The notes: generated by a model from the letters alone, not told the origin. Numbered from the stretch's first letter, positions 10,180 to 40,802 are shown. The stretch: 64,000 bases of DNA from Bacteroidota bacterium (GCA_029262855.1 JAJCYP010000076.1:4784-68783), one strand, 5' to 3'. Made by a program: numbers and translations.

Positions 10180-10186
10180 AGAAGCC

Positions 10187-12763: not shown

Positions 12764-12784
12764 CGGACCAAGGAGATACAAGAA

Positions 12785-13477: not shown

Positions 13478-13490
13478 CAAAGAGGTTGCC

Positions 13491-14482: not shown

Positions 14483-14564
14483 GCGGCGTTGGTACTCGGC
14501 GTGGTCATCATGGTCGCGTTGGTCATGGTTCAGATCCCCAACGACATCACGTCTGGGCTTGAGC

Positions 14565-14584
14565 GGGACCTTTTGGTCCTTTTC
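14565..14584 (+). terminator. rho-independent terminator (GGGACC-TTTT-GGTCC + TTTT)
   Basis: GC stem followed by a T-tract, between the convergent AhpD-like and arsA genes. Confidence 0.5.
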
Positions 14585-14600
14585 GCCTGCCTGGTGGTTG

Positions 14601-16445: not shown

Positions 16446-16482
16446 GGCGGGCACCAAGGGTGTTTCGTCGATCAGTCGTGGA

Positions 16483-23087: not shown

Positions 23088-24383
23088 ATGCCATCATTCC
23101 GCCTATTCGTTCTCGCGCTGGCTATTCTTGTCACCGGCCTGTCCAGCAAGGCATTGGCTCAGAATTCCCCGCCTGCCCCGGCGTCAAGGGAGCCGGTCAT
23201 CCACCTTGATGAGCTCATCCTAGAAGCGCTCGAGCGCAATCCGAGACTGCGCGCAACCCGTCTCGACGCAATCGCTCGCAGGGCGAGGGTCCTTGGCGCA
23301 GGAACACTACCTGACCCACTGTTTGAGGTTACCTATCAACCAGCGCCCGTGCTAACCGCGCGCGGAGCACAGCGGAGTCAGTGGCGCATCCAGCAGGTCA
23401 TTCCCTACCCGAAAAAGCGCAGCCTTCGCGCCGATATTGCCGGCGTTGAGGCCGACGTCGGTGAATCCCGGGCCGGGGTTTTGGCGGCAGATGTTGTGCT
23501 TCAAATACATGAGGTCTATTACGAACTCTACCGCAGCCAGCAGCGGGCGGCGCTCCTGAAGGAGTTCCAGACAGATCTCCGGCAGTTCGAGGATGTCACG
23601 GTGACCAGGTACGCGGTTGGGAGGGAGGCCCAGCCGAGTATCCTCAAGGTGCAGCTGGAACGGAACGCCATCAATCTTCGGTTGGAGCTTCTCGGTGAAC
23701 AGCGGCGGTCGACCGTCGCTCGGTTGGCAGCACTTCTCGACAGGCCCGACATGGGTGACCTGGGGGGCCGTATCGAGCTGCCGGAGGCACATCTACTGGA
23801 AGGGACGCTTCAAGCCGCCCTTGACCTGCTTCCGGAGGCGCACGAAGCGCGGCTTGAGACCCGTCTCCAAGACCTCAGGGTCTCTCTGGCCGAGCGCGAC
23901 TTCAGGCCCGACTTCTCGCTTGGCCTTACTTATTACGACATCGGATCGAGAGGCGTGACCGCCACCATGACTGGTCAGGATGCGGTAGCGATTACGGCTG
24001 GTATCCGAATCCCGATGTGGCGAGATCGCTTGAGAAGCAACCTGGATGCGGCTCGGGCTGCCCGCGGCGCGGTCGACGCGCACTACGAGGCGCTGATCCT
24101 GGACGTCCAGACTCAGACAACGAGTCTCAGAGAGAATGGAGCTCGCCAGAGACGGCAGCTTGAACTCATCGATGGCGTGCTCCTCCCCCAAGCCGAGGCA
24201 GCGGTCGAATCGTCCCTAACCCTCTACGCGACCGGCGAGGTAGGCTTTCTGGACGTGATCGATTCACAAAGAACACTCCTCGAACTGCGCCTCAGCCGCA
24301 TCGAGACCTTGGTCCGCTGTCTCAACACCGCGGCAGCCTTCGAACGAGCCATGGGCCGCTTTCCAACCCATGAAACCAATTAG
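23088..24383 (+). CDS. outer membrane efflux factor (TolC/CzcC family), heavy-metal RND system 1
   Basis: Signal peptide, LEEALERNPRL start, two OEP repeats. Confidence 0.8.
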   Translation: MPSFRLFVLALAILVTGLSSKALAQNSPPAPASREPVIHLDELILEALERNPRLRATRLDAIARRARVLGAGTLPDPLFEVTYQPAPVLTARGAQRSQWRIQQVIPYPKKRSLRADIAGVEADVGESRAGVLAADVVLQIHEVYYELYRSQQRAALLKEFQTDLRQFEDVTVTRYAVGREAQPSILKVQLERNAINLRLELLGEQRRSTVARLAALLDRPDMGDLGGRIELPEAHLLEGTLQAALDLLPEAHEARLETRLQDLRVSLAERDFRPDFSLGLTYYDIGSRGVTATMTGQDAVAITAGIRIPMWRDRLRSNLDAARAARGAVDAHYEALILDVQTQTTSLRENGARQRRQLELIDGVLLPQAEAAVESSLTLYATGEVGFLDVIDSQRTLLELRLSRIETLVRCLNTAAAFERAMGRFPTHETN

Positions 24384-25794
24384 CAAGCCAGCACCCGTCA
24401 ACGCCATGCTACACCAAGACCCCAAGCGGCGGCCCGTCAGGTCTCGCCGCTGGCCCGCTCTCGCGCTGCTCGCCACCGGGCTAATCATTGCCTTCTATTT
24501 GGGGCGATCAACTGCTCCGGCCCCCGAGCTCGGGGATGATCTCTCCGCCTCGGACGAGCTCGCCACTGGCGATGTGCTGTACTGGAGGGCGCCCATGGAC
24601 GCCAATGAAATTTATGACAGCCCTGGCAAGTCAAAGATGGGAATGGATCTCATTCCCGTATACGGTGAAGAGGCCCAGGAGGCCGCATCCGGGACAGTAA
24701 GGATCGACCCCGTGGCGCTGCAAAATATCGGCGTCCGCACGGTCCCCGTTGTGGTCGAGTCACTACCACGTGAGATTCGCACCACCGGCCGCTTCGTCAT
24801 GGACGAGCAGGGTGAGCGCATCGTCACGATGAAGGTGGGCGGATGGATCGAAAAGCTATACGCTGACTTCGATGGGATGCGCATCGGTGCGGGAGATCCG
24901 CTTCTGGAGCTCTTTAGTCCCGAACTCGTCTCGACGCAGGAGGAATACCTTCTTGCCTTTCGCAACATGGTGCGACTCGAAGGAACGGAGGCTGCCGAAG
25001 ATGGGCAGCGTTTGCTGGATGCTGCTCGCCGTCGTCTGGCCTACTGGGATATCTCCGAAGGCCAGATAAGCAAGCTCCAGGAGACGGGAGAGCCGCAACG
25101 CACCGTCCTTTTTCGTTCGCCGTGGTCGGGGGAGATCATGCGCAAGCAGGTCGCCGAGGGTGAGCATGTCGAGGCCGGCCAGACACTCATGGATATCGTG
25201 GATATTTCCAGGAACTGGCTCATTGTGGATGTCTACGAACGCGACCTCCCGTGGGTACGAACAGGCATGCCCGCGCGGATCGAGCTTCCGTACGATCCGG
25301 GCACGATCTACGGCGGCCGCGTCGAGTATCTCTATCACATGTTGGACGCGACGACACGGTCAGCGAAGGCGCGGATCCTGATGCCCGGCGGCCACCTGGC
25401 GCCGATAAAGCCTGGGATGTATGCCACGGTGTACCTGACGAGCTCCGCTGCGGCCCCGGCGCCCATTGTCCCCGAGGAGGCGTTGATCAGAACCGGAGAG
25501 GAGGAGTGGGTGATTCTGGCCCTCGGAGGCGGCAGGTTTCGGCCGGTTAGGGTCCAGGCCGGCCTGGCATCCAATGACCGTGTTCAGATCCTCGATGGTC
25601 TGCAAGGAGGCGAGCAGGTTGTAGCGGGTGCCCAATTCCTTATCGATTCGGAGGCCCGCCTCCGTGGCGCACTCGGATCGATGGTGGCCACCGACACCCC
25701 GCAGCAAACCGACTCCGGGGAGGCCATGAATATGGAGATGGGCACTGACCCGACTTCCCAAACGGGCGCGGATTCGATGAGGTCGCAGCGATGA
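24370..25794 (+). CDS. RND periplasmic adaptor (CusB/CzcB family), system 1
   Basis: CusB-like N-terminal YWRAPMD....MGMDLIPVY Met motif. Beta-barrel and lipoyl-like domains. Confidence 0.8.
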   Translation: MKPISKPAPVNAMLHQDPKRRPVRSRRWPALALLATGLIIAFYLGRSTAPAPELGDDLSASDELATGDVLYWRAPMDANEIYDSPGKSKMGMDLIPVYGEEAQEAASGTVRIDPVALQNIGVRTVPVVVESLPREIRTTGRFVMDEQGERIVTMKVGGWIEKLYADFDGMRIGAGDPLLELFSPELVSTQEEYLLAFRNMVRLEGTEAAEDGQRLLDAARRRLAYWDISEGQISKLQETGEPQRTVLFRSPWSGEIMRKQVAEGEHVEAGQTLMDIVDISRNWLIVDVYERDLPWVRTGMPARIELPYDPGTIYGGRVEYLYHMLDATTRSAKARILMPGGHLAPIKPGMYATVYLTSSAAAPAPIVPEEALIRTGEEEWVILALGGGRFRPVRVQAGLASNDRVQILDGLQGGEQVVAGAQFLIDSEARLRGALGSMVATDTPQQTDSGEAMNMEMGTDPTSQTGADSMRSQR

Positions 25795-28700
25795 GCCTAC
25801 TTGAGACCATTATCGAAAAGAGCGCCACCAATCGAGTGCTCGTCCTGCTCGTGACCACGCTCATCGCGGGAGCCGGTGTCTGGGCCCTGGTCAATACGCC
25901 GGTAGACGCGATCCCCGATCTCTCGGACGTGCAGGTAATAATTAAGACGGAGTTCGCTGGCCAAGGGCCGCAAATCGTAGAAGAGCAGGTCACCTATCCC
26001 ATCGCGACGGCCATGATGGCCGTTCCCAGGGCGAAGACGGTTCGCGGATATTCGATGTTCGGCACCTCCTTTCTCTATGTGATCTTCGAGGACGGCACCG
26101 ACATGTATTGGGCTCGAAGCCGGGTGCTTGAGTACCTCAACCAGGTAGCCGGGAGTCTGCCCCCAGGAGCCGAACCCGCAATCGGGCCCGATGCAACGGG
26201 CGTCGGATGGGTATTTCAGTATAGCCTTGTCGATACGACGGGCGCGCACGACCTGGCGCAGCTTCGGGCCATCCAGGATTTCTTCCTGAAGTATGAGTTG
26301 CAGGCCATCGATGGCGTCGCCGAGATCGCCACCGTGGGCGGATTCCAGAAGGAGTACCAGGTCGTCGTCGATCCGCAGAAACTCGACGCGTACAGCATCC
26401 CCATTTCCGCTGTCCGCGACCAGCTGGCCCAAAGCAACCGGGACATAGGCGGGCGAATCCTGGAACTCGGGGAGAGGGAGTTCATCGTGCGTGGAAAGGG
26501 ATATCTGCGCACTCTTGATGACATCCGAAGCGTGCCCCTCACATCGGTAAACGGCACCACCGTCACAGTGGGGGACGTAGCGCGGGTTCAGCTCGGACCG
26601 CAAATCAGACGCGGCATCGCGGAGAAGAACGGTGAGGGCGAAGTCGTTGGTGGAATCGTGGTGATGCGTTTCGGCGAGAACGCCCTGGAGGTCATCGAAA
26701 ACGTCAAGGCCCGGCTCGATGAATTGGCCCCAGGCCTTCCCGCTGGAGTTCATGTGGTGACCGAGTACGACAGGTCCCGCTTGATCCTGCGGGCCGTGGA
26801 TACGCTTCGCCGCAGCATCCTCGAAGAGATGATAGTTGTGGCCATCGTGGTCCTGCTATTTCTGCTCCACTTCCGAAGTGCGCTCGTCGCCATCGTCTCC
26901 GTCCCAATCGGCATCCTGATCTCGCTCCTCGTGATGCATTTGCTTGGAGTCAACGCCAACATCATGTCTCTGGGTGGGATCGCCATCGCGATAGGGGTCA
27001 TGGTCGACGCATCGCTTGTCATGGTCGAGAACGCCCACAAGCACATCGAGCGAAAGCGTGCTTTTCTCGGTCGCGATTTGGAGGGGATTGAGCGCATGCG
27101 GGCCGTCACTGATGCCGCCAAAGAGGTCGGCCCCAGCCTCTTCTTTTCGCTTCTGGTGGTAACCATCTCCTTTCTCCCGGTCTTTGCGCTTGAGCAGGTC
27201 GAAGGGCGCCTATTTCGCCCCCTCGCGCTCACCAAGACGTTCTCCATGGCGGCGGCGGCCCTGCTTGCGATAACCCTGGTACCAGCCCTCATGGTGATTC
27301 TGGTAAAGGGAAGGATCCGCCCGGAGGCAGCAAACCCCCTTTCCCGATTCTTCATTCGAAGCTATCGGCCGGTGATCCAGTGGACGCTACGGCATCCCGT
27401 GGCCGTCCTTGCGACTTCCGCGGTGCTGCTCATGGTCTCGCTGCTTCCCGTTCAGCAAATGCTGTTCGGCGGAACCCGCGTGCCCTTCACGCAGATGGGG
27501 TCTGAGTTCATGCCGCCCCTCGATGAGGGCGACCTGCTGTACATGCCATCGACGCTGCCTGGCGTCAGTCCGCAAAAGGCCAAGGAGATCCTCCAGCAGA
27601 CAGATCGCATCCTCGCGTCGTTCCCTGAAGTGGAAAGCGTGTTCGGAAAGATCGGTCGAGCTGACACCGCGACGGACCCGGCACCGCTGTCCATGGTGGA
27701 GACTACCGTGATCCTGAAACCCCGGTCCGCCTGGCGCACAGGGATGACCCGGGAGAACCTGGTCGCAGAGATGGACGCCTCTCTGCAGATACCCGGTCTG
27801 TCGAACGTCTGGACCATGCCAATCAAGAATAGAATTGACATGCTCGCCACGGGTATCAAGACTCCCGTCGGGATCAAGATTGCGGGACCGGACCTGAGCA
27901 TCCTCCAGGACCTGGGACACAGCATCGAGTCTGCTCTCGCCGGAGTCGAAGGGACGCGCTCGGTATTCTCGGAGCGGGTCATGGGAGGATCCTTTCTCGA
28001 TTTCGAGATCGACCGTGCAGAGGCAGCCCGCCACGGCCTCACCACGGGAGAAGTCCAGGCGGTCATCGAGAGTGCCGTTGGCGGAGTAACCGTGACAAAG
28101 ACGGTCGAGGGACTCGAACGCTACCCAGTCACAATTCGCTATCCGCGGGCGCTGCGAGACGACTTAGAGAGCCTGCGGAACGTCCTGATCCCCACGCCTT
28201 CGGGCGCTCAGGTGCCCCTCGGTCAGTTGGCGCGGCTGCAAATGTCAGACGGCCCTCCGATGATCAAGAGCGAGAATGCCCGCCCCAACGCGTGGGTCTA
28301 CATCGACCTACGAGACGGTTACGACGTCGGGACGTACGTGCCGCGAGCGAAGGAGGCTCTGGCGGGACTGGACCTTCCTCCCGGCTACTCACTTACATGG
28401 AGCGGGCAGTTTGAGTATCTGGAGCGAGCAAGCCAACGCCTCCGAACCCTCATCCCGCTCACGATAGCGATTATTTTCTTGCTGCTCTTCCTTCACTTCC
28501 AGGCGATTCCCGAGACACTCATCCTGATGGTTAGCCTGCCCCTCGCGATTGTGGGCGCCATCTGGCTGATGGTCGGACTCGGATATAATATGTCAATCGC
28601 CGCAGCCGTTGGATTCATTGCGGTGGCGGGTCTGGCAGTCGAGACTGGCGTGGTCATGCAGGTCTACCTCGACGAGGCGGTCGGCCGCTATCGGCGGGAA

Positions 28701-28988
28701 GGCCGCCTGACTTCCCCCACCGCGCTTCGGGATGCCCTGGAGGAGGGCGCGGTGGACCGGGTGAGGCCCAAGCTGATGACCGTCTTCACGACGCTAATCG
28801 CGCTCCTGCCAATCATGTTCGGGACGGGGACTGGTAGCGAGGTCATGAAGCGAATTGCGACCCCGATGGTGGGTGGCCTGGTATCCTCGACCCTCCTTAC
28901 CCTTTTGGTGATTCCCGCGGCATATGGCATCCTTCACGCCCGCCGCTTGAAATCGAACCCAGGCATCGGGCGGGACGGCACGCCGTAA
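25791..28988 (+). CDS. heavy-metal efflux RND transporter (CusA/CzcA family), system 1
   Basis: 1065 aa, 12 TM helices with two large periplasmic loops, HME-RND signature regions. Confidence 0.9.
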   Translation: MSLLETIIEKSATNRVLVLLVTTLIAGAGVWALVNTPVDAIPDLSDVQVIIKTEFAGQGPQIVEEQVTYPIATAMMAVPRAKTVRGYSMFGTSFLYVIFEDGTDMYWARSRVLEYLNQVAGSLPPGAEPAIGPDATGVGWVFQYSLVDTTGAHDLAQLRAIQDFFLKYELQAIDGVAEIATVGGFQKEYQVVVDPQKLDAYSIPISAVRDQLAQSNRDIGGRILELGEREFIVRGKGYLRTLDDIRSVPLTSVNGTTVTVGDVARVQLGPQIRRGIAEKNGEGEVVGGIVVMRFGENALEVIENVKARLDELAPGLPAGVHVVTEYDRSRLILRAVDTLRRSILEEMIVVAIVVLLFLLHFRSALVAIVSVPIGILISLLVMHLLGVNANIMSLGGIAIAIGVMVDASLVMVENAHKHIERKRAFLGRDLEGIERMRAVTDAAKEVGPSLFFSLLVVTISFLPVFALEQVEGRLFRPLALTKTFSMAAAALLAITLVPALMVILVKGRIRPEAANPLSRFFIRSYRPVIQWTLRHPVAVLATSAVLLMVSLLPVQQMLFGGTRVPFTQMGSEFMPPLDEGDLLYMPSTLPGVSPQKAKEILQQTDRILASFPEVESVFGKIGRADTATDPAPLSMVETTVILKPRSAWRTGMTRENLVAEMDASLQIPGLSNVWTMPIKNRIDMLATGIKTPVGIKIAGPDLSILQDLGHSIESALAGVEGTRSVFSERVMGGSFLDFEIDRAEAARHGLTTGEVQAVIESAVGGVTVTKTVEGLERYPVTIRYPRALRDDLESLRNVLIPTPSGAQVPLGQLARLQMSDGPPMIKSENARPNAWVYIDLRDGYDVGTYVPRAKEALAGLDLPPGYSLTWSGQFEYLERASQRLRTLIPLTIAIIFLLLFLHFQAIPETLILMVSLPLAIVGAIWLMVGLGYNMSIAAAVGFIAVAGLAVETGVVMQVYLDEAVGRYRREGRLTSPTALRDALEEGAVDRVRPKLMTVFTTLIALLPIMFGTGTGSEVMKRIATPMVGGLVSSTLLTLLVIPAAYGILHARRLKSNPGIGRDGTP

Positions 28989-29563: not shown

Positions 29564-29792
29564 TCGACCCGGCAGACTGACCTCTGGCGAGGCGTTCTTC
29601 GCCCGACCATGGAGGTCCCCCCAAGCCGGCAATCAAGTCCCGGGCCTGAGGTCTGCCCAAGCGGGAATCTCCTGAGTACGCCCACGGCCCCGAGGTCCGT
29701 TGTGCGCGGCCAGCGCCGCTTGGTACGGCGCCGGCCCTATTCCAATACGTGGCACCGAACCAGTCTGGCGGCGTCACCGAACTCCCTACACC

Positions 29793-32700
29793 ATGTTCGA
29801 ACGAATCATAGCGTTCTCACTGCGACAACGGCTCCTGGTTCTTATGGGGACCTTTGGCCTTGTAGTGGGCGGCGTGCTCGCCTTCTGGCAGTTGCCTATT
29901 GACGCCGTCCCTGACGTCACAAATAATCAGGTCCAAGTGCTGACGCAGGCGCCCGCCCTGTCGCCTCTGGAGGTAGAGCAGTTGGTTACTCGGCCTATCG
30001 AGCTCGCCCTGAAGTCACTGCCCGACGTCGTCGAGCTGCGCTCACTGTCCAGGTCCGGGATTTCCGTGATAACGGTGGTCTTTGAGGAAAGCGTCGAGAC
30101 CTACTTCGGAAGACAGCTCATCCTGGAACGCCTGCGTGAGGTCGACAGCGACCTGCCCGGCGGAGTCGAGACGCCTCAACTGGGACCGGTATCCACCGGC
30201 CTCGGGGAAATTTTCCGATATGTCGTGCGGGATGAATCCGGAGTCTACTCCGCGATGGAGCTCCGCACGATTCAGGACTGGATCATTCGGCGCAATCTCC
30301 TGGGTGTCCCCGGTCTCGCAGAGGTCAACTCGATTGGGGGATACCTCAAACAGTACCAGATCCTCGTAGATCCGGCGAAGCTCGTTGAGTACGGCCTGAC
30401 GCTCCGCGAGGTATTCCAGGCCGCCTCTGAAGCGAGCGGGACCGGTGGCGGTGGCTACATAGAACGGGGTCCGGAGCAGCTGACCGTCCGGTCTGTGGGG
30501 CTTGTCCAAAGCATAGACCAACTGGGGCGAACGGTAATCCGGTCCGTCGATGGGACGCCTGTAGTCCTGGCTGATGTGGCCGAAGTGGCGATTGGTCCGG
30601 CGCTGCGTTTTGGTGCGGCCACCGAGGACGGACAGGGAGAAGTGGTCACCGGAATCGCGATGCAGCTGAAGGGTGCAAACGCACGTGTGGTCGTGTCAGC
30701 CGTGAAGGATCGCGTCGCCGAGATCCAGGAAATGCTCCCCGAGGGTGTGTACATCGAACCCTATTACGACCGGACGGAACTGGTGGGGCGGACCATATTC
30801 ACCGTCGGCAAGAATCTCGGGGAAGGTGCCATTCTGGTCATTCTGGTCCTCCTGCTTCTACTGGCGCATCTCCGGTCCGGCCTCATTCTGGCCAGTGTGA
30901 TTCCACTGGCCATGCTCTTTGCGGTCATCATGATGGTCCTGACCGGCCAGACCGGCAACCTGATGAGCCTGGGGGCAATCGATTTTGGATTGGTGGTCGA
31001 TGGCTCGCTCATCATCGTCGAAAGTGTGCTGAGGCTCCTGTCGAGCCGCCAGAAGGAAGGCACGTCGTTGATGGATGACCGGGGAATGAAGCAGCTGGTC
31101 TACTCAGGCGCCGTGGAAATGGTGAGCGCGGCCAAGTTCGGCGTGTTCATCATCATCATTGTCTATCTCCCCATCATCTCGCTCGAGGGAATTGAGGGCA
31201 AGCTGTTCAGGCCCATGGCGCTGACGGTGAGCTTTGCGCTCATCGGCGCATTGCTCCTCTCGGTGACGTACGTCCCGGCGATGTGCTCGCTGTTTCTACA
31301 GGGCCGCAAGCCGGTTCGTCACTCCCCCATCATCGAGTGGATCGGCAGGGTGTATCGGCCGCTGTTGAGCCGGGCCCTCCAGCACGGGAAGCCGCTGGTG
31401 GGAGCGACGTTGGCAGTCTTGGCGCTCTCGATATTTGGATTTACACGGCTCGGGGGCGAGTTCATTCCGAAGCTGGACGAGGGGGACCTGTCCATCCAGA
31501 TCATCCGTCTTCCCTCGGTTTCGCTGACCGAATCCCTCAAGATCACCGGCGAAGTGGAACGGCGAATCGCAGCGTTTGCTGAGGTCAAGACCATGGTATC
31601 GAACACGGGCCGGGCCGAAGTGTCCACGGACCCGATGGGTGTCGAGGTGTCGGATGCCTACGTGATTCTCAACCCGATGGATGAGTGGCCCCTGATCGAT
31701 GGGCGCCGTCGATCCAAGGCCGAGCTGGTTGAGGCCATGAGCCACGCGGCCGAGGAGGTAGCGGGCGCGGGATTCCAGTTCCTCCAGCCCATCGAAATGC
31801 GCACGAATGAGCTGATAGCCGGAGTCCGCGGAGACCTGGCTCTGAAGATATATGGGGAATCCTACGACGTCATGAATCCCCTGGCCGAACAGATCGCGGG
31901 AATCCTGCGCCAGACCCGCGGCGCGGCCGACGTGACGGTGGAACAAACGAGCGGCTTCCCCCAGCTCGTAATAATCCCGGATCGCGAGGCCATGGCCCGC
32001 TATGGACTCAGGTCGGCAGACATTAACACGCTGATCGAGACTGCGGTGGGGGGGAAGAAAGCTGGAGAAATCTACGAGGGCGAGCGGCGGTTTGATCTGG
32101 TAGTCCGCTTTGGAGACCAGGTGCGGGAGGACGTGAGCGCGCTCCGTAAGACTCTGGTGCCGGTCTCCAGCGGGGCCCGGGTACCCCTGGAAACCTTGGC
32201 CGCCATTCGGGTGGAAGAGGGGCCGGCTCAGATATCTCGAGACGAGGGCTCGAGGTACGTCACCGTTCAGGCAAACATCCGGGGACGGGATGTGGCCTCC
32301 TTCGTGGCGGATGTCCAGGAGACGGTCGGGACCGACCTGAGTTTCCCGCCCGGCTACAGGCTGGAGTACGGCGGTCAGTTCGAGAACCTCAGGGCCGCCA
32401 CGCGGCGTCTGTCTGTGGTCGTGCCGCTCGCCTTGCTCCTGATATTCCTGCTGCTGTTCCAGACGTTCGGATCCGTGAGAATCGGTGTCTTGATCTTCCT
32501 GGCCGTTCCCATGGCGGTGATTGGCGGAGTTGCCGGGCTGTTCCTGACCGGCCTTCCGTTCTCCATCTCCGCTGGAGTTGGATTCATCGCCCTCTTCGGA
32601 ATTGCGGTCCTGAACGGGATCGTGATGGTGGCAGCCTTCCGGAAGTTTGAGCGAGAGGGTATGGACCGGCTATCCGCGGTCGTCGCCGGTTCGGACGAAC

Positions 32701-34214
32701 GACTTCGTCCCGTCATTACGACGGCAACCCTGGCCGCGTTGGGCTTTGTCCCGATGCTTCTGGCGCAGAGTGCCGGTGCGGAAGTGCAGCGCCCCCTGGC
32801 CACCGTGGTCATCGGCGGCATCGTAACCTCGACCTTGCTGACCCTCTTCATCCTCCCCATTGTCTATGCCTGGTTTGGTGGTCCCGCACTGTCCGGACCG
32901 GGGTCCACCGAGCCCGAGCAGTTCACACCGGTCTCGAGCGGAAGGACATCCGCCGGTCCGGTGGCCTTGGGTGCCCTTCTGTTCCTGGGACTGTGCGTCC
33001 CCTCCGGCTCCGCCTTGGCCCAACAGGGGGCTGATGACGCCATTTCCCTTGAGGAGGCTCGAACGAGAGCCGTGGAGGTCTCTCCACCGCTGTCCATCGG
33101 TACGGCGAGGCTCGACAGGGCGCGTGCGCAAACCCGGTCGGCGGGAATGCTACCGGATACGGAGGCGTTCTACGTGGTTGACGGGGAACGGCTGGATGGA
33201 GTCAGCACCGCGCGCGAGACCGCGATTGGGGCGGGGCAGGAATTCCCCCTCTTCAGCATGGCCGCCGGCAAGCGGGCTGCCTCTCGCCGGGCATCTCTTG
33301 CCGAGATCGAACTCCTTGGCCTACGCCGGGCGGTCCTGCTGGAGGTCGAACTCGCGTACGTCCGCCTCCAAGCCGCACAGTCACAGCTTGCTCTGGCGGA
33401 TTCTGCGGTTTCCATCGCCCAGACGTTCTGGGAGTCAGCCGCGCGCCGCCGAGAACTCGGCGATACGGGTCCGCTGGAGGCGCTTCAAGCGCGCGTGGCG
33501 TATTCGGAATCCGTTCGGGCGAGAGCTGCAGCCGCGGGAGATCACCTTGCCGCTCGTTCCGGGCTCGCCTTGTTGTTGCAGATGGACCCCGGCCGCGGTC
33601 TCGTGGCTGAGGACCCGCTGGGACATTTGGGTCCCCTCCAACCACGGGAGGGGCGTTTGGACCTGGCAGCGCGAGCCAGCCCGGAGGTGGCCGCACGCCA
33701 GGCCGCGGTCGCGGTAGCCGAGGCCCAGTCGAGGATTGTCCGGACCGGGCGCCTTCCCAGCCCGCGACTCGAGCTATCCAGCCAGACCCGAGACGGCGGC
33801 TCGGGATACTTCGGTGCCGGGATCGGACTGACCCTGCCCCTGGGTCGCTGGTTCAACCGTGGTCCCGAACGCGCCGCGGCAGCCGGAATCGCCCTCGCCC
33901 AGGCCGAGCTGGGACAGGCCCGGCTGGAGGTCCAAACCCGGCTGGCCGCTCTACTGGCCCGCTACGAGGCCAGCCGGCGCGAGGGACGGGAGTACGACGA
34001 GACCATCCTGCCCCAGGCCCGGGAGGCCTACCGGATTGCGCTCCGCCTTCGGGCGCTGGGAGATGCCTCCTACCTGGAAGTCCTGAGTGCGCAGACCGTC
34101 CTGATAGCCTCGGAGCGCGCCGCCACAGAATCCCATCTACTGACGGCCACCCTCCGTGCCCAAATCACTGCACTCGAAGGCCTGGAGGCCGATGAGTGGC
34201 ACACCACTCGCTAA
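29793..34214 (+). CDS. CusA/CzcA-type RND pump fused in frame to a complete TolC/CzcC-type outer membrane factor (single 1474-codon CDS; stop codon lost or genuine fusion)
   Basis: The RND part starts at MFERIIAFSL and ends ...LPIVYAWFGG. The frame then continues with no stop through a signal-peptide-like segment PVALGALLFLGLCVPSGSALAQQ and a full OMF domain (ISLEEARTRAVEVSPPL... to the end). The ORF-track frame 29700..34214 is one ORF. Confidence 0.75.
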   Translation: MFERIIAFSLRQRLLVLMGTFGLVVGGVLAFWQLPIDAVPDVTNNQVQVLTQAPALSPLEVEQLVTRPIELALKSLPDVVELRSLSRSGISVITVVFEESVETYFGRQLILERLREVDSDLPGGVETPQLGPVSTGLGEIFRYVVRDESGVYSAMELRTIQDWIIRRNLLGVPGLAEVNSIGGYLKQYQILVDPAKLVEYGLTLREVFQAASEASGTGGGGYIERGPEQLTVRSVGLVQSIDQLGRTVIRSVDGTPVVLADVAEVAIGPALRFGAATEDGQGEVVTGIAMQLKGANARVVVSAVKDRVAEIQEMLPEGVYIEPYYDRTELVGRTIFTVGKNLGEGAILVILVLLLLLAHLRSGLILASVIPLAMLFAVIMMVLTGQTGNLMSLGAIDFGLVVDGSLIIVESVLRLLSSRQKEGTSLMDDRGMKQLVYSGAVEMVSAAKFGVFIIIIVYLPIISLEGIEGKLFRPMALTVSFALIGALLLSVTYVPAMCSLFLQGRKPVRHSPIIEWIGRVYRPLLSRALQHGKPLVGATLAVLALSIFGFTRLGGEFIPKLDEGDLSIQIIRLPSVSLTESLKITGEVERRIAAFAEVKTMVSNTGRAEVSTDPMGVEVSDAYVILNPMDEWPLIDGRRRSKAELVEAMSHAAEEVAGAGFQFLQPIEMRTNELIAGVRGDLALKIYGESYDVMNPLAEQIAGILRQTRGAADVTVEQTSGFPQLVIIPDREAMARYGLRSADINTLIETAVGGKKAGEIYEGERRFDLVVRFGDQVREDVSALRKTLVPVSSGARVPLETLAAIRVEEGPAQISRDEGSRYVTVQANIRGRDVASFVADVQETVGTDLSFPPGYRLEYGGQFENLRAATRRLSVVVPLALLLIFLLLFQTFGSVRIGVLIFLAVPMAVIGGVAGLFLTGLPFSISAGVGFIALFGIAVLNGIVMVAAFRKFEREGMDRLSAVVAGSDERLRPVITTATLAALGFVPMLLAQSAGAEVQRPLATVVIGGIVTSTLLTLFILPIVYAWFGGPALSGPGSTEPEQFTPVSSGRTSAGPVALGALLFLGLCVPSGSALAQQGADDAISLEEARTRAVEVSPPLSIGTARLDRARAQTRSAGMLPDTEAFYVVDGERLDGVSTARETAIGAGQEFPLFSMAAGKRAASRRASLAEIELLGLRRAVLLEVELAYVRLQAAQSQLALADSAVSIAQTFWESAARRRELGDTGPLEALQARVAYSESVRARAAAAGDHLAARSGLALLLQMDPGRGLVAEDPLGHLGPLQPREGRLDLAARASPEVAARQAAVAVAEAQSRIVRTGRLPSPRLELSSQTRDGGSGYFGAGIGLTLPLGRWFNRGPERAAAAGIALAQAELGQARLEVQTRLAALLARYEASRREGREYDETILPQAREAYRIALRLRALGDASYLEVLSAQTVLIASERAATESHLLTATLRAQITALEGLEADEWHTTR

Positions 34215-34269: not shown

Positions 34270-35445
34270 ATGAACCGTTCAACATTCGTCCTGGCCTCAA
34301 TGCTTGCCCTGGGGGCCCTGCTTTGGACTGGCTGTGGCTCCAACGCCGGCATGAGTCCCCAAGCGTCCGAGGCGCAGACGGAAGCGGAGGCGGAGACTCA
34401 CGATTCCGAGGAGATAGTTCTAACCGCCGAACATATGGAGCAGGCGCAACTTGAGACCGCTACGGTCAGCCCGACCGTCTTGCGAAGTTCATTCACCGTT
34501 CCGGGTCGCGTTGTATCCTCGCTTCAGGGGTCGGCCCACGTGGGGGTCTTGGTTTCGGGCCGCGTGGTTTCCCTCATGGTAGACGAAGGTGCCACGGTTC
34601 GACGGGGTCAGGCCCTGGCCGGGGTGGAGAGCTTCGAAGTCGTCCGGCTCAAGGCGGAGTACCACGAGGCCCATGCCAGGCTGGAGCAGGCCGCCTCCGC
34701 CCTTGATCGAGAGACGCAGCTTGTCGCCGAAAAGCTTGCCCCGGAGAGGGAACTGGAGGAAGCAGCCAGCGCCCAGCATACCGCGGAAGCGGTGGTACAC
34801 GCTGCCGCTTCGAAACTGTCCGCTCTGGGAGTCCTACCCGAGTCCATTGCCGAGAACACCGAACTGGAGGGCGGGAGGATGACCGTACGTGCCCCCATCT
34901 CCGGAACGGTTACTGCGCGGCTGGTGAAGCTTGGCGAGTTCGTCGAGCCGAGCGATGACCTTTTCCAGATCGCTGCCGAGGCATCAACCCTGATCGAGGC
35001 TCAGGTACCTGCCGCCAGCGTCGACCTCCTCCGCATCGGATCGGTGGGCACGGTCGTGACCGCTAATCAAACCATCTTACAAGCGCGCGTAGTCTCGGTG
35101 GCCCCCATCGTTTCCAGCGAGAGCCGGACCGTCGAGGTCCGATTGGAACTCTCTCAGGGGAGCCTGCGCCCGGAGACATTCGTCGAAGTGCGATTTGAGA
35201 CCGTGGGTGAGCGGGAGGCCCTTGTCCTCCCGGCCTCCGCCGTGGACAGGGAGGGCTCATCGGCGTACGTGTACGTTCAGGAGTCGCCGGGGCGATTTCG
35301 ACTGGCAGAAATCCGCATCGCTGCCGAGACGGATGGATTCGTCGAGGTTTCGGCCGGCCTCGAGGCCGGGCAGGCGGTGGCGGTGTCGGGGGTGTTCTAT
35401 CTCCGCTCAGCCCGACAGAAGGGGGAACTGGCTGACCATGATTAA
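34270..35445 (+). CDS. RND periplasmic adaptor (CzcB/CusB family) lipoprotein, system 2
   Basis: MNRSTFVLASMLALGALLWTGCGS lipoprotein signal. MFP domains. Confidence 0.75.
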   Translation: MNRSTFVLASMLALGALLWTGCGSNAGMSPQASEAQTEAEAETHDSEEIVLTAEHMEQAQLETATVSPTVLRSSFTVPGRVVSSLQGSAHVGVLVSGRVVSLMVDEGATVRRGQALAGVESFEVVRLKAEYHEAHARLEQAASALDRETQLVAEKLAPERELEEAASAQHTAEAVVHAAASKLSALGVLPESIAENTELEGGRMTVRAPISGTVTARLVKLGEFVEPSDDLFQIAAEASTLIEAQVPAASVDLLRIGSVGTVVTANQTILQARVVSVAPIVSSESRTVEVRLELSQGSLRPETFVEVRFETVGEREALVLPASAVDREGSSAYVYVQESPGRFRLAEIRIAAETDGFVEVSAGLEAGQAVAVSGVFYLRSARQKGELADHD

Positions 35446-35668
35446 TCCACCGCCCGGTGGCCCACCCCAATCACGAAGGCCACCCCTATGGTGCCGAACG
35501 CGATCCGATTCGAAGGCGAAATGGCGCGCCGTGCACTTCTGAGTCCCAAGGCGAGACCCGCCGTGGCCCGTATGCCCCGATTTGGCTCGAAAAGCCCTTC
35601 ATTTCTCGTTGGCACGCAAGTGGTGTAGGGTGTTCGAAACGTCTGACCGACCACAACCTACTAGCACA

Positions 35669-35995
35669 ATGCGAGCAATTCTCCTCCTCTTGTTCCTCGG
35701 CACATCACTGACGGCCTGCGATTCTGGGGCACTGACCGATAGCCTCGACACCGAAACGGCAGCTCTCCGTTCCAGCGAAACCAGCGTTCTCGTTCAATCG
35801 GGCGACGTTGCGTCCAAGGGTGGCGAGAAGTTTACCATCTGCCACGTTCCTCCCGGCAATCCCCCCAACGCCCATTTCATCTCTGTCGGTAGCCGCAACG
35901 CCGTAGACATGCACGTCGAAAACCACGCCGGAGATTTTGAGTTAACACCCGGAATGATGATGACCTGTCCAATGATGCCGGGCGGTGGCGACTGA
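35669..35995 (+). CDS. small Met/His-rich lipoprotein (putative Cu(I)-binding)
   Basis: MRAILLLLFLGTSLTAC lipobox. C-terminal MMMTCPMMPGGG, HVENHAGD. Confidence 0.45.
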   Translation: MRAILLLLFLGTSLTACDSGALTDSLDTETAALRSSETSVLVQSGDVASKGGEKFTICHVPPGNPPNAHFISVGSRNAVDMHVENHAGDFELTPGMMMTCPMMPGGGD

Positions 35996-36163: not shown

Positions 36164-39100
36164 CTACGAAGCGCTCCCCGCCAACTCCCCGACGCGAGGT
36201 CCGAATCGCAGATAGAGCGCAGGTACGACGACCATGTTCAGGAAAGTGGACGTGAGGAGGCCACAGAGAATGACAATGGCCATGGGTGTCTGGAGCTCCT
36301 TGCCGGGTTCGCCCCCACCCAACGCCAGCGGGATCAGCGCGAGCCCCGCGGTCAGGGCAGTCATGAGAATAGGGTTGAGGCGTTCCATGGAGCCGTGAAA
36401 GACGGCATCGGCCAGCGTGTGGCCCGCCTTCACCAGGTAGGTATAGTGGCTGACCAACAAGATCCCGTTCCGGACGGCCACGCCAAACAGGGTGATGAAT
36501 CCCACGAGGGCGGCCACGTTCAGTTCGCCATTCAGGAACAGGAAGACACCGATCAAACCGCCCGTCAGGGCCAACGGCAGGTTGACCATGATGAGGAGGG
36601 CCGACCTGGCGCTGCCGAACTCCTTGAAGAGGACCAGGAATATCAGGAAAATGGACAGGATCGAAAGAAGGGCGATGGTCCGGGTGGCTGCCCTGGCACT
36701 TTCGAATTGCCCGCCGTATTCGATGCTGTACCCCTGCGGGACGCTCACGCCGGCCTCTATGGCCGTCTTCATGTCCGCCACCACGCTCCCGACGTCCCGA
36801 CCCGCCACGTTTGATGAGATGACGATCTTCCGCTGGACCTTCTCCCGGCTGATTGTATTCGGGCCGCGTTCTTCCCGAACGAGGGCGAGGGATGACAGGG
36901 GGACCATCGGTCCGAGCGGCGTGGATATCAGGGCGCTCTGAACCCGCTCTTTGCTCCCTCGGTCGCCCACGGCAAACCGAACTACCAGGTCATACTTGGC
37001 CTGTCCCTCCCGGATTTCCGATACCGTCTCGCCAGCGAAGGCAATATCGATGGACTCCGCGAGATGTCCGGGAGTCACTCCATACGCGGACATCGCCCGT
37101 CGGTCAGGGTAGACGCGCAGTTGGGGCACGTCTGCCTGCTGCTCAACGGACAGATCCACGACCCCGGGCACTCCCTCGATGGACCCTCGAATACTCTCAG
37201 CGACGCGCCGGAGTTCATAGAGGTCAGGTCCAAACAGCTTTATGGCAATCGAGGCCCGCGTGCCCGAGAGCATGTGATCGATTCGGTGCCCGATGGGCTG
37301 GCCGATGGTAATGTTGGTGCCGGGCACGAGGGTCAGCCTGGCGCGCAGTGATTCGAGCACCTCATCCAGCTCGTGCCCGGCAAGGTCCAATCGCACGTCA
37401 ATTTCCGCAGCATTGGCTCCCTGGGCATGCTCGTCCAGTTCGGCTCGTCCCGTCCGACGCGACGTTCCAACTACAGCCGGGTGGGCGAGCACGATGCGCT
37501 CGACCTGCCGGCCCATTTCGTCGGAAACATCCAGTGCTGTCCCGGGCACGGTTACGGCTGAGATGACGAGCGTCCCTTCCTGAAACTCGGGCAGGAACCC
37601 GCGGCCGAGAAATGGAAACGCCAGGGTGGTCAACACCAGGAGCAGCGCTGCCGAGACGACAACGGCTCCTGTATGGCGCAGGACGAACGCGAGCGTGCCC
37701 CCGTACCCACGCTTGAGGCGCGTAACCAGCCAGCTGTCGCGCTCGTCGGTCATGAAGCGAGCCTTGGGGAGCAGATAGTAGCAGAGGACCGGCGTAACCG
37801 TGACGGCAACGACCAGGGAGGCGACAATCGAAACGATGTAGGCAAAGCCGAGCGGCCTCAGCATTCGGCCCTCCACTCCCGAGAGAAAGAAGAGGGGCAG
37901 AAATACAATGGTGATAATGATCGTCGCATTCAGGATTGGCCCACGAACCTCCTTTGACGCCTCGTAGACCACCGTCAATCCAGGCAGCCGATCCCGTTCT
38001 GGTCGCATCCGGTTTTCCTTCAGTCGCCGGAAGACGTTCTCTACATCGATGATGGCATCATCCACCAGCGCGCCGATGGCAATCGCCATGCCCCCGAGCG
38101 TCATCGTGTTGATCGTGACCCCAAGGGCCTTCATCGCGAGCACCGCAACGGCCAGGGACAGGGGAATCGCAATCACCGAGATTCCCGTGGTCCGGAAATT
38201 CCACAGGAACAGAAAGAGAATCAGCACTACGAGGATCGCCCCATCGCGCAGGGCCTCCACCACGTTTGATACGGCCAGCGTGATGAAGCTCGATTGGCGA
38301 AAGATTCCCCGATCAATCACCATCCCCTCGGGCAGTTGTGCTCCAATCGCGTCGAGTTCCGCGTCGATTCGCTCCGTGAGTTCCAGTGTGTTCGCACCGG
38401 GCTGTTTCTGGATAGACAGGACCACCGCAGGCTCACCGTTGAGGGATGCGGTGCCAAATCGGGGGGCCGGGCCAATGGCGACATCGGCAACGTCCCTCAG
38501 GAGTATGGGCACACCGCTCCTGGTGGCGACGACCGTTTGGGCCACATCCTCGACCGACCGCGCTCGGCCCAGGCCTCTGATGAGTATCTCCTTGCCGCTC
38601 TCGTGGTAAATCCCGCCTGAAGCGTTCGCGTTCGATGCCGCGGAAGCTTCCACAACCTCAATAAGGCTCACACCGTACGTCCGCAGCTTCGACGGATGTA
38701 CGCTGACCTGGTACTGCTTGACCTGCCCGCCAATCGGGACGACCTGGGAGACACCCTCAACCGAAAGCAGCCGTTTGCGAACGAGCCAATCGGCCTCGGA
38801 GCGAACCTCCATCAGGGAGTGCTCGCTGCTGGTCATGCCGATCAGAATGATCTCGCCCATGATGGACGTTATCGGAGCCATGACGGGGGGGTCGAGATCG
38901 TCCGGAAGCTGGGTCGTGACCAATTGGAGCTTCTCGGACACGATCTGGCGTGCCCGGAAGATGTCTGTCCCCCAATCGAATTCGACCCAGACAATGGAAA
39001 TCCCCTGAGCAGTGGATGAGCGAACCCTGCGAACCCCGGAGGCTCCGTTGACGGCCGTCTCGATGGGGTAGGTGACGAGAGACTCCACCTCCTCAGGGGC

Positions 39101-39268
39101 CATGCCGTGGGCTTCGGTAAGCACCGTGACCGTCGGTGCCGTCAGGTCGGGAAAGACGTCCACCGGGAGCGTGGCGGCCGCCCAGACACCGGCCGCCATG
39201 AGAACGGCAGCAGCGGCAAGCGCCACGACCCTGTTGGACAGGGACCATTGTATGATTCGATCGAGCAT
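36164..39268 (-). CDS. heavy-metal efflux RND transporter (CusA/CzcA family), system 3
   Basis: 1034 aa, HME-RND topology. N-terminus MLDRIIQWSLSNRVVALAA. Confidence 0.9.
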   Translation of the reverse strand: MLDRIIQWSLSNRVVALAAAAVLMAAGVWAAATLPVDVFPDLTAPTVTVLTEAHGMAPEEVESLVTYPIETAVNGASGVRRVRSSTAQGISIVWVEFDWGTDIFRARQIVSEKLQLVTTQLPDDLDPPVMAPITSIMGEIILIGMTSSEHSLMEVRSEADWLVRKRLLSVEGVSQVVPIGGQVKQYQVSVHPSKLRTYGVSLIEVVEASAASNANASGGIYHESGKEILIRGLGRARSVEDVAQTVVATRSGVPILLRDVADVAIGPAPRFGTASLNGEPAVVLSIQKQPGANTLELTERIDAELDAIGAQLPEGMVIDRGIFRQSSFITLAVSNVVEALRDGAILVVLILFLFLWNFRTTGISVIAIPLSLAVAVLAMKALGVTINTMTLGGMAIAIGALVDDAIIDVENVFRRLKENRMRPERDRLPGLTVVYEASKEVRGPILNATIIITIVFLPLFFLSGVEGRMLRPLGFAYIVSIVASLVVAVTVTPVLCYYLLPKARFMTDERDSWLVTRLKRGYGGTLAFVLRHTGAVVVSAALLLVLTTLAFPFLGRGFLPEFQEGTLVISAVTVPGTALDVSDEMGRQVERIVLAHPAVVGTSRRTGRAELDEHAQGANAAEIDVRLDLAGHELDEVLESLRARLTLVPGTNITIGQPIGHRIDHMLSGTRASIAIKLFGPDLYELRRVAESIRGSIEGVPGVVDLSVEQQADVPQLRVYPDRRAMSAYGVTPGHLAESIDIAFAGETVSEIREGQAKYDLVVRFAVGDRGSKERVQSALISTPLGPMVPLSSLALVREERGPNTISREKVQRKIVISSNVAGRDVGSVVADMKTAIEAGVSVPQGYSIEYGGQFESARAATRTIALLSILSIFLIFLVLFKEFGSARSALLIMVNLPLALTGGLIGVFLFLNGELNVAALVGFITLFGVAVRNGILLVSHYTYLVKAGHTLADAVFHGSMERLNPILMTALTAGLALIPLALGGGEPGKELQTPMAIVILCGLLTSTFLNMVVVPALYLRFGPRVGELAGSAS

Positions 39269-39284
39269 TTTCGGGGGTCCGGAT

Positions 39285-40799
39285 TCAGTGGGCGTGGCCT
39301 TCGGCCGCGATTTCAGACGTGCTCAACGAGCCCAAATACACTTGGTAGGCGCCAACGGTCACAACGTGTTCGCCCGCCGACAGCCCGCTCTCGACCAGCG
39401 TCTGGAGACCATCGGTTTCCCCGAGACTCAACCGCCTCCTGGCGAAAGACTCGCCTCCGATCTGCACATACGCGACGGGCTGGCCATCCTCGCGGAGAAT
39501 GGCCTCATTCGGAATCGTTATCCCGGACCTCGCGCCACCCACTTCCAGCAATGCCACCGCAAATTGGCCAATCTTCAGAGAGCGATCCGAGTTCGTCACC
39601 GTCGAGATGACCGGCAGCGTTCGCGTTTCCGGATCTATGACCGCTCCGATGGAGACGATCCGGCGGGACCAGTACCGACGGCTGGTCCCCTCCACCGTGA
39701 AACTCGCCCCGGCGGCGTCATTGACCAAGGCCGTCTGACTGGCGGGGATGTTCAGCCGGAGCCAGACCTCATCGGGATCTACAACAACGAACAGGCTCTG
39801 GCCGGACTCCACTCGCTGGCCGGGAACGAACGTTCGGGATTGCACGATACCAGAGATTGGGGACCGGGCGACGTACTCGTATCCCTTGCTTGCCCCGCCC
39901 ATGGCCCCCAGCGCGGCCTGAGACAGTTCGAGATCGTGGCGTGCCTCGATGAGCCGTCGCTCTGGGATGGCCTCGGCGGCGAAGAGTCTTTCGAGCCGTT
40001 CCACTTCCCGGTTGAGTCGCTGTCCGTCTGCCACGGCCCGGGCGAACGAATTGTCCTGACTCGTCGGGGACAGGACGACCATCGTCTGGCCAGCCCGGAC
40101 GCGGCTACCGACCGCTGGCGCATTCAGATTGGTTTGCGCGCGCGCCAGGCCGCTCACGGGAGACGCCACCTCCGCCACCCGGCCCGCTGCCGGCTCGATG
40201 ACACCAGTCACCTCAATCGTAGTCGGAAGCGACTCGACTCCGACCGCCACCACCTGGAAGTCGATGGGCCACTGTTGTTCTTTCAGGAACGAAATGCCGG
40301 CTGCCTCAGCCTCCTCTTCGTGCGGGATCGCACCGGGCGTTGCGTAGACCTCCACACGCCCCACGGCAATCGTGTCTGACAATTGCGGTCCACGCGCAAT
40401 CATGGCGAGTTGATAGGTACCGGCGGTGGAGATCAGTGGTCTCGGCGTGTAGATGCCCGGCCTGGCAGGCGAGGCGGAGACTGTGGACTGAACCGTACCG
40501 TCTGCGGCCCTGAACACCAGTTCCAGTCCCCCTTCGGTCACCGGACTGAAGTCTGACAGCCGTGTGAGGTGGACCGCCCAGGGCTCACTTTCCACGCCGG
40601 CAACCATCGGCGGATACTCGAAAAACAACTCGCTCGCTTCGGTCCAGACAGTGACGGCGATGCCAGCGTGCTCCTGCTCACCAGAGGTGGTCCCAGCGGG
40701 CAGGCCATCGCTGGAGCAGGCCGCGAGTCCAAGAACCAACGTTGCCGGCAGGAATACCGTACTACGAATGCGTCGTAATAGCCGTGTGGATGTGCGCAT
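39285..40799 (-). CDS. RND periplasmic adaptor (CzcB/CusB family) lipoprotein, system 3
   Basis: Lipoprotein signal ...LGLAACSS. MFP domains. Confidence 0.8.
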   Translation of the reverse strand: MRTSTRLLRRIRSTVFLPATLVLGLAACSSDGLPAGTTSGEQEHAGIAVTVWTEASELFFEYPPMVAGVESEPWAVHLTRLSDFSPVTEGGLELVFRAADGTVQSTVSASPARPGIYTPRPLISTAGTYQLAMIARGPQLSDTIAVGRVEVYATPGAIPHEEEAEAAGISFLKEQQWPIDFQVVAVGVESLPTTIEVTGVIEPAAGRVAEVASPVSGLARAQTNLNAPAVGSRVRAGQTMVVLSPTSQDNSFARAVADGQRLNREVERLERLFAAEAIPERRLIEARHDLELSQAALGAMGGASKGYEYVARSPISGIVQSRTFVPGQRVESGQSLFVVVDPDEVWLRLNIPASQTALVNDAAGASFTVEGTSRRYWSRRIVSIGAVIDPETRTLPVISTVTNSDRSLKIGQFAVALLEVGGARSGITIPNEAILREDGQPVAYVQIGGESFARRRLSLGETDGLQTLVESGLSAGEHVVTVGAYQVYLGSLSTSEIAAEGHAH

Positions 40800-40802
40800 G
40801 GA

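Follow-up and report, generated by a model that had tools for sequence, protein, structure and literature searches.

A metal efflux pump and its outer-membrane channel in one reading frame: a predicted precursor polyprotein with an internal signal peptide

By the textbook, a tripartite efflux pump is the product of three genes. How, then, are two of its components made and delivered when a genome encodes them as one chain? This question is raised by a locus in a 64,000-nucleotide stretch of DNA from a Bacteroidota bacterium (GCA_029262855.1, JAJCYP010000076.1:4784-68783), which was analysed as a whole and is called the window here; positions are counted from its first letter. The locus comprises a heavy-metal-efflux (HME) transporter of the resistance-nodulation-division (RND) type that is fused in frame to an outer membrane factor (OMF), with the gene for a periplasmic adaptor, or membrane fusion protein (MFP), directly behind it. 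The answer bears on how the synthesis of an inner-membrane pump and that of its outer-membrane channel can be matched, and on how the two meet. With a probability of roughly three in four, we interpret the product as a czc/zne-type heavy-metal efflux precursor polyprotein with the layout [A~C]-B (RND and OMF in one chain, adaptor apart), which signal peptidase I would cut between A1076 and Q1077.

A pump and a channel in one conserved frame

The frame from 29700 to 34214 (+) is open, and from its first ATG, at 29793, the listing of open reading frames (ORFs) in the window gives a single uninterrupted ORF of 1473 codons that closes with a TAA stop codon (34212-34214). Residues 5–1028 match the Pfam family ACR_tran (PF00873) at E 2e-279, over positions 1–1020 of the 1021 in the profile, and residues 1–1028 score 1198.4 bits against the NCBIfam model of the CusA/CzcA family (TIGR00914; cut-off 701.45). 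Among solved structures, the RND part is closest to ZneA (E 2e-207) and then to CusA, and it aligns end to end with both. In Nies's classification, the proton-relay consensus in the fourth transmembrane (TM) segment of divalent-cation-type transporters is reportedly DFG..DG..VE(N). TM4 of the fused protein, DFGLVVDGSLIIVES, fits this consensus except that the last N is S in the window, and D397, F398, G399, D403, G404 and E410 are invariant in an alignment of 25 fused homologues. The closest specific model for the adaptor is that of CzcB/NccB (TIGR00999), at 168 bits and below that model's cut-off of 319. Because ZneA is the best structural relative, the D-D-E residues of TM4 are conserved and the adaptor lies nearest to CzcB/NccB, albeit below the cut-off, the substrate would probably be divalent metal cations.

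The C-terminal part contains two OEP stretches (PF02321) up to residue 1460, which score 122.6 bits in Pfam against a cut-off of 22. By sequence, this part had no match in the PDB at E 1e-3, and the OMF was identified there by fold search alone. An AlphaFold2 monomer model of residues 1005–1473, computed from 44 aligned sequences, had a mean predicted local distance difference test score (pLDDT) of 87.5 and exceeded 90 through the OMF part. Along the chain, the model has TM12, then a disordered linker, a helix of low confidence at a hydrophobic segment and, from residue 1082 (model residue 78), a fold with its elements in the order of TolC: twice a set of short helices, two β-strands, a helix of ~65–70 residues and a helix of ~35 residues, together with equatorial elements. 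Foldseek matched it to TolC, VceC, OprM, OprN, CusC and SilC (E 1e-14 to 1e-17 over 400–425 columns; template-modelling scores of 0.67–0.78 by target length). No PDB chain covered RND and OMF together, the longest RND chain listed having 1069 amino acids (aa).

When 5.8 billion proteins were searched, the matches included more than 100 clusters (90% identity level) with lengths of 1445–1533 aa, identities of 41–64% and both PF00873 and PF02321 in each; their named sources are Rhodothermaceae, Chlorobi, Kapabacteria, Ignavibacteria, Bacteroidetes, Armatimonadetes and Sandaracinaceae. The fusion is kept in at least 178 homologues from many genera, at 38–64% identity, and 22 independently assembled contigs share one identical fused protein. 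A genome scan was made with one genome per species, and its figures refer to the best 80 loci among the matches listed. In 70 of them the fused ORF runs without interruption for at least 1400 aa, and in all 70 an MFP gene follows it directly in the same orientation; the fused loci examined share the [A~C]-B layout without exception. Cultured carriers include Fibrella rubiginis, Sinomicrobium weinanense, Aequorivita viscosa, Taibaiella koreensis, Pedobacter yonginense KCTC 22721, Chitinophaga dinghuensis DSM 29821, Dyadobacter psychrotolerans, Leeuwenhoekiella marinoflava DSM 3653 and several Flavobacterium, Pontibacter and Muricauda. The Flavobacterium carriers include F. hibisci and F. calami. 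The neighbourhoods of the homologues are metal-resistance contexts, with P-type ATPases, CDF and Zip transporters, ArsR and multicopper oxidase, and in the databases the fused genes are labelled simply as CusA/CzcA family transporters.

Could the frame owe its continuity to a sequencing or assembly error, or to the decay of a gene that has lost its stop codon? The window probably comes from a metagenome-assembled contig, and the family does include artefactual fusions, namely a frameshift artefact (P0040) and a frameshifted locus (L065), both described below. With 61% G+C in the window and all three frames open across the 141-nt linker, the open frame at this locus is weak evidence when taken alone. 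Third-codon-position GC across the linker is nevertheless highest in the frame of the ORF, both domains are full-length and well conserved, and at least 178 independent sequences, some from finished chromosomes and type strains, show the same architecture. We regard the decisive evidence for the fusion as comparative, and an artefact or pseudogene as extremely improbable.

The 178 fused sequences make up nearly all of a neighbour-joining tree of the RND parts. Of the unfused sequences, twelve group in a single clade, usable as an outgroup, and three are isolated tips within fused clades, a pattern that would fit a single old origin of the fusion with rare secondary loss. The nearest unfused relative (the P0115 clade) has a C-B-A operon, and members of this clade have no OMF gene downstream of the RND gene, which rules out a simple loss of the stop codon from such an operon; a rearrangement must therefore have preceded or accompanied the fusion.

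A sequence-only reading of the window had proposed an RND–OMF fusion in one stop-free frame, and the ORF listing, Pfam and TIGR00914 bear this out, with a length of 1473 aa in place of the 1474 given and a mature OMF of 397 aa in place of about 410. The A-C-B gene order it described is real and conserved, and the two neighbouring systems do have the order C-B-A. As an alternative it had considered a recent stop-codon loss, which is refuted by the divergence and spread of the fusion: at least 178 of the homologues found are fused and not encoded as two separate genes. It also knew of no description of the arrangement. This agrees with the literature searched, in which we found no description of a natural RND–OMF fusion, and with the portion of a 2021 Chem Rev review that was covered, which does not mention one; in the sequence databases, on the other hand, the architecture is common.

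The junction between pump and channel

The junction reads ...IVYAWFGG-PALSGPGSTEPEQFTPVSSG-RTSAGPVALGALLFLGLCVPSGSALA-QQGADD. Past TM12 (...LPIVYAWFGG) there are 22 non-hydrophobic residues, followed by R-TSAGP-VALGALLFLGLCV-PSGSALA-QQGADDAISLEEA. This segment has the form of a signal peptide for signal peptidase I (SPase I), with R1051 as the basic residue, P1070 and G1072 as helix breakers and small residues at positions -3 and -1 (A1074-L-A1076); it stands immediately before the mature OMF domain, but internally in the chain. Lipoprotein-type processing by signal peptidase II (SPase II) at C1068 was considered and rejected, as LGLC is unfit as a lipobox and the cysteine is not conserved.

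Among the homologues, the linker varies from 3 to 69 aa and shows no sequence conservation, yet it ends in a recurrent pattern of one or more basic residues, a short hydrophobic core, often Pro or Gly, a small-x-small motif and Gln. Small-x-small-Q follows the hydrophobic core in 107 of the 108 database homologues, and Lys or Arg lies at most 10 residues upstream in 100 of the 108. In the combined set the motif occurs at 172 of 177 junctions (97%) and after 4.8% of 1882 other hydrophobic 15-mers from the same proteins, figures that express a contrast and not a probability, since the sequences are related and do not represent independent events. Pro or Gly is found between -8 and -4 in 137 of the 172, and the uncharged run that precedes the site has a median length of 17.5 residues. 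Q1077 itself is conserved in at least 90% of the sequences and is among the few such columns outside the RND part.

A preference for Gln after the cleavage site, the 'Q-rule' for SPase I substrates, is known from Bacteroidetes and Ignavibacterium (PMC5837995; PMC10653852). In the window, all eight readable N-terminal signals of the SPase I type end in small-x-small↓Q (the arrow marks the predicted cut), those of both stand-alone OMF paralogues included; the ORFs concerned are those at 8167, 10139, 21145, 23088, 42053(-), 48390(-), 51985(-) and 63442(-), and the sites are listed in Table 1. The organism thus represented seems to follow the Q-rule, and the putative junction site, SALA↓QQG, is of the same form as the window's own predicted SPase I substrates.

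A natural split version of the gene is found in Flavobacterium notoginsengisoli (L073:6000-6400), where the RND part ends in a stop codon and, after a spacer of ~120 nt, the OMF gene begins with its own ATG. The N-terminal signal peptide of this OMF is MMRTKYKINIKFFRGKFICLLIMFLLVCTTTFA↓QQKISLEKA (...TTTFA↓QQKISLEKA). At the same position, the fused proteins of F. calami and another Flavobacterium (L046, L021) read ...RKNTMKTPIITIIVLLISTFSFA↓QNTQKVTLEEA (...STFSFA↓QNTQKVTLEEA), and the OMF parts of the split and fused versions are 70–73% identical. From this match it follows that the internal hydrophobic segment is the positional counterpart of an ordinary cleavable signal peptide.

Such a segment might also serve an OMF that is initiated separately, from an internal start codon (GTG 32961 here) and with its own signal peptide, the read-through product being minor or degraded. 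An in-frame GTG is indeed present at 32961; an in-frame start lies upstream of the hydrophobic core in 29 of 72 fused genes (ATG in 18), and the linker of an Ignavibacteria-type clade resembles a native N-terminus (KMSTHIKATIF...). However, in 43 of the 72 there is no ATG, GTG or TTG in frame from which a signal peptide with a basic n-region would result, and independent initiation can therefore not be the general route. The GTG of the window falls inside the h-region, past the sole basic residue, and would yield a product without an n-region. A frame that is not used should also gather indels and stop codons in linkers of 3–69 aa, above all in AT-rich Bacteroidota, but 178 members are open. 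Since the frame stays open across linkers of variable length, AT-rich genomes included, the OMF appears to depend on translation from the RND start, and ribosomes translating the RND part would meet no stop codon, so that the fused chain would be made regardless. Separate initiation is thus an unlikely explanation for the family.

A second alternative is that the chain is not cut at all, so that one polypeptide would reach from the inner to the outer membrane, with each RND protomer joined to an OMF protomer by a thirteenth helix. In its favour, the ORF is unbroken and conserved, cleavage is deduced from sequence, and the stoichiometry would suit a 1:1 fusion, as RND and OMF both form trimers. 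The geometry of such a tether was assessed from the secondary-structure positions in the model and textbook dimensions. In the model, the first structured element of the OMF begins 5 residues past the predicted cut. Between V1069, at the end of the hydrophobic core, and D1082, the first structured OMF residue, there are ~12 residues, which span at most ~42 Å when extended; the distance from the Gln to the first helix is equally short in the homologues. The N-terminus of a TolC-type fold, however, lies in the equatorial domain, part-way up the 100 Å α-barrel and far from the inner membrane, and in assembled RND pumps the barrel tip is itself separated from the inner membrane by at least 70 Å. 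With a reach of ~12 residues against a span of more than 100 Å, an uncut chain would therefore be unable to place a canonical OMF in the outer membrane, and on this modelled geometry we strongly expect a permanent tether to be sterically implausible. A tether would also leave the conserved -3/-1/+1 pattern without explanation, and the split orthologue uses the same segment as an N-terminal signal peptide. We consider a permanent covalent link deeply improbable. It is likewise very unlikely that the chain is left uncut, or is cut only after assembly, so as to form one polypeptide anchored in both membranes as a covalently linked trans-envelope pump.

These results also bear on what the sequence-only reading had said of the junction. 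Its signal-peptide-like hydrophobic segment is there, with the junction sequence as quoted, and the topology it thought feasible holds up. An internal GTG start for the OMF has to be rejected, given the position of GTG 32961 within the hydrophobic core and the 43 genes without a usable start. A covalent tether between the membranes finds no support, in view of the near-invariant SPase I site, the signal peptide of the split orthologue and the ~12-residue gap.

We therefore return to the cleaved precursor as the preferred interpretation. The ribosome would make a single 158-kDa chain, of which the 12-TM RND part would enter the inner membrane with its C-terminus in the cytoplasm. The short, variable linker would remain in the cytoplasm and end in a basic residue, which fits the positive-inside rule, while the hydrophobic segment would insert N-in/C-out as a thirteenth span and start Sec-dependent translocation of the OMF. 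Signal peptidase I would cut after A-L-A1076, and the released OMF of 42.4 kDa would start with Gln1077, probably cyclised to pyroglutamate as in Q-rule organisms. The free OMF would form a trimeric outer-membrane channel, and the 115.3-kDa RND protein would keep the linker and the spent signal peptide as an extra C-terminal helix. Together with the separately encoded lipoprotein adaptor, the two would make up an ordinary tripartite pump. A likely benefit of the fusion is the obligatory 1:1 co-synthesis of pump and channel protomers; that each channel protomer is released beside its own pump is speculation. A weaker variant, compatible with cleavage, would have the retained thirteenth helix and the local release of the OMF enforce assembly in cis, giving each RND trimer a private channel in place of access to a shared OMF pool.

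Several points weigh against this interpretation. We infer translation as one chain, cleavage and its exact site, the pyroglutamate, retention of TM13 and the metal substrate, and the case for cleavage is built wholly on sequence signatures. The motif was scored with our own rule-based scan in place of a dedicated signal-peptide predictor, on the related sequences mentioned above. It is unusual, to our knowledge, for a bacterial protein to be cut at an internal signal peptide that follows a 12-TM domain. The hydrophobic segment has a pLDDT of only ~55 in the AlphaFold2 model. A possible internal start codon is available in the 29 members described, and a share of independent initiation is possible in those species. 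Finally, the fused protein of the window has no exact match in the large protein collection, where its best match is 64% identical.

Genomic setting and departures from the fusion

The window is a metal/metalloid island that encodes ArsA, a molybdopterin oxidoreductase exported by the twin-arginine translocation (Tat) pathway, MoaA, a pyridine-nucleotide disulphide reductase, a DUF302 protein, three HME-RND systems and two-component regulators. The neighbouring HME-RND systems are distant paralogues, with RND parts that are 32–35% identical (to the fused RND, 34% for the system upstream and 35% for the one downstream). The features of the fused locus and its surroundings are collected in Table 1.

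Table 1. Features of the fused locus, neighbouring genes and predicted signal peptidase I sites in the window (↓, predicted cut)
Feature	Coordinates	Strand	Remarks
Fused ORF	29793..34214	+	RND, linker, internal signal peptide, OMF; predicted precursor 157.7 kDa
Heavy-metal-efflux RND domain	29793..32876	+	residues 1-1028, full 12-TM ACR_tran
Cytoplasmic linker	32877..32942	+	residues 1029-1050; unconserved, predicted disordered (pLDDT <50)
Putative internal signal peptide / would-be TM13	32943..33020	+	residues 1051-1076; n-region R1051, h-region VALGALLFLGLCV, c-region PSGSALA
Predicted signal peptidase I site	33020..33021	+	A1076↓Q1077
Predicted mature OMF domain	33021..34211	+	residues 1077-1473, 397 aa, 42.4 kDa; complete TolC/CusC-type protomer
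Periplasmic adaptor (CzcB/MFP), lipoprotein	34270..35445	+	lipobox LWTGC, Cys at 34333-34335
Paralogous HME-RND system	23088..28988	+	C-B-A order; OMF N-terminal signal peptide ...SSKALA↓QNS
Second paralogous HME-RND system	36164..42053	-	C-B-A order; OMF signal peptide ...SSPATA↓QVE
Small Cys/His-rich ORF, 150 aa	29111..29563	+	upstream of fused gene; signal-peptide-like N-terminus
Small predicted lipoprotein	35582-35995	+	MRAILLLLFLGTSLTAC↓DSG; directly past adaptor gene
OMF1 signal site			ALA↓QNS
OMF3 signal site			ATA↓QVE
DUF5916 protein signal site			ASG↓QDE
FG-GAP protein signal site			VSA↓QPY
ORF 8167-9177 signal site			AVA↓QNT
DUF302 protein signal site			AAA↓QMS
Hybrid kinase signal site			TQA↓QHL
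Tat-exported molybdoenzyme signal site			TSA↓QPA

The adaptor gene probably starts at ATG 34270, 55 nt past the stop codon of the fused ORF; a longer ORF from GTG 34156 would overlap the end of the fused ORF. The adaptor scores 145.5 bits against the NCBIfam model TIGR01730 (cut-off 94.9). The small lipoprotein gene that follows has no family match, and it is not kept downstream of the homologous operons examined.

Whether the small Cys/His-rich ORF upstream of the fused gene is part of the efflux system is uncertain. It carries the motifs DCAGEEDH... and HCQSC and a Pro-rich stretch close to its C-terminus, and it has no Pfam or NCBIfam match. When it was compared with ORFs upstream of fused genes elsewhere, one (at L001) shared a DCA...HC..SC pattern, with a BLAST match that was not significant (E 0.24). 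Its product may be a CutF-like metal-sensing leader protein (compare PMC9973294).

Elsewhere in the window, the module at 10139-16553 comprises a molybdopterin oxidoreductase with a Tat signal (874 aa), a 4Fe-4S subunit-like ORF (12785-13477), a chaperone-like ORF and a duplicated ArsA ATPase (14601-16553, minus strand), with MoaA and a sigma-54 two-component pair upstream; it is possibly an arsenic redox and resistance island. The MoaA protein is only 45–47% identical to its best organism-named matches (Rhodothermales, Rhodocaloribacter), which makes the source organism a deep-branching relative outside the classical Bacteroidetes. MoaA (6861-7853), unlike the fused protein, has a 100% identical entry in the protein collection (P0121); the fused gene may have been dropped from the source annotation or marked there as a pseudogene.

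The family also contains members that depart from the usual distribution or architecture. A Bacteroidota-type fused gene occurs in a chromosome labelled Glaciecola amylolytica (L018, CP034120.1), that is, as gammaproteobacterial, which indicates either a mislabelled record or horizontal transfer. Fused genes also occur in bins labelled Gemmatimonadota (L030), Armatimonadetes (P0064) and Sandaracinaceae (P0017). One locus (L065) has a frameshift within the OMF part, and at another (L069) an OMF-like gene lies ~1.4 kb downstream in a different frame. In a single cluster nested within the RND–OMF clade (P0097, 1437 aa), an RND protein of the same subfamily is fused to an MFP and not to an OMF, with the junction at residues ~1040-1065. 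Its internal hydrophobic segment ends in a lipobox (MLASAVLIGC↓SEK), which points to SPase II as the processing enzyme. Another protein (P0040, 1814 aa) is closely related to that of the window and looks like a triple fusion of RND, OMF and MFP. We rejected it as an A~C~B fusion, as an Arg/Ser/Pro-rich stretch that looks out of frame (~1360-1430) leads into an MFP that has a Met and a lipobox of its own (MNTYLNTLRLLFSLLLLLATGC); a frameshift artefact or a pseudogene is the most likely explanation.

Comparison with known systems

The fusion is widespread yet apparently undescribed, and its components are ordinary members of their families. It points to a large family that is common in Bacteroidota, Rhodothermales-like, Ignavibacteria and Chlorobi-like genomes and whose single chain is most likely split by SPase I. 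If this is true, the fused proteins would be among very few natural bacterial membrane polyproteins; an outer-membrane β-barrel/α-barrel protein would be delivered from the C-terminus of a polytopic inner-membrane protein, and the RND transporter would be left with a thirteenth helix. Surveys of efflux gene content are also affected, because the OMF encoded in a gene of ~1450 aa that is annotated only as 'CusA/CzcA family transporter' is invisible to them.

The prediction is testable in the cultured carriers, with the natural split version in the same genus as a control. In Bacteroides thetaiotaomicron, BT3968-BT3969 encode an adaptor and a CusA/CzcA transporter with no TolC-family gene, and a TolC-family gene is listed for the other three HME operons in the same table (PMC10434189). 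BT3969 may be a fused RND–OMF in a genetically tractable model organism.

The closest known systems are the HME-RND pumps CzcCBA, ZneCBA and CusCBA. They consist of the same three components, a TIGR00914 RND transporter, an OMF and a CzcB-type lipoprotein adaptor, and share the acidic residues of TM4 and the metal-resistance context. In the fused system, by contrast, RND and OMF share a single ORF that includes an internal signal peptide, [A~C]-B replaces the order C-B-A, and the mature RND protein is predicted to have a thirteenth, C-terminal helix. The same working principle may be represented by the cytochrome b-c1 precursor FbcH of Bradyrhizobium japonicum, whose subunits are reportedly separated post-translationally (work of Thöny-Meyer and colleagues, around 1989-1991). 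FbcH likewise joins a polytopic inner-membrane protein through an internal signal peptide to another subunit of its complex. The proteins are unrelated in sequence, however, so that the parallel is one of analogy only, and both FbcH products stay in the inner membrane, whereas the OMF of the fused ORF must reach the outer membrane.

With the Q-rule substrates of Bacteroidetes (PMC5837995; PMC10653852), the junction shares the n-h-c organisation of the signal, small residues at -3 and -1 and Gln at +1. Its signal is internal, after a 12-TM protein, and not N-terminal, and both cleavage and pyroglutamate formation are predicted. Internal signal peptides and a host signal peptidase also split single chains in viral membrane polyproteins, for example the glycoprotein precursors of bunyaviruses (PMC7926653), but these use the machinery of the eukaryotic endoplasmic reticulum and are not homologous. 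Thermus thermophilus SecDF (PMC8277102) likewise has two RND-superfamily components in one polypeptide; there, SecD and SecF are inner-membrane halves of one 12-TM unit that stay fused, with no signal peptidase site. Given its [A~C]-B layout, internal signal peptide and predicted 13-TM mature RND, which set it apart from these systems, the fusion would thus represent a new arrangement of known parts.

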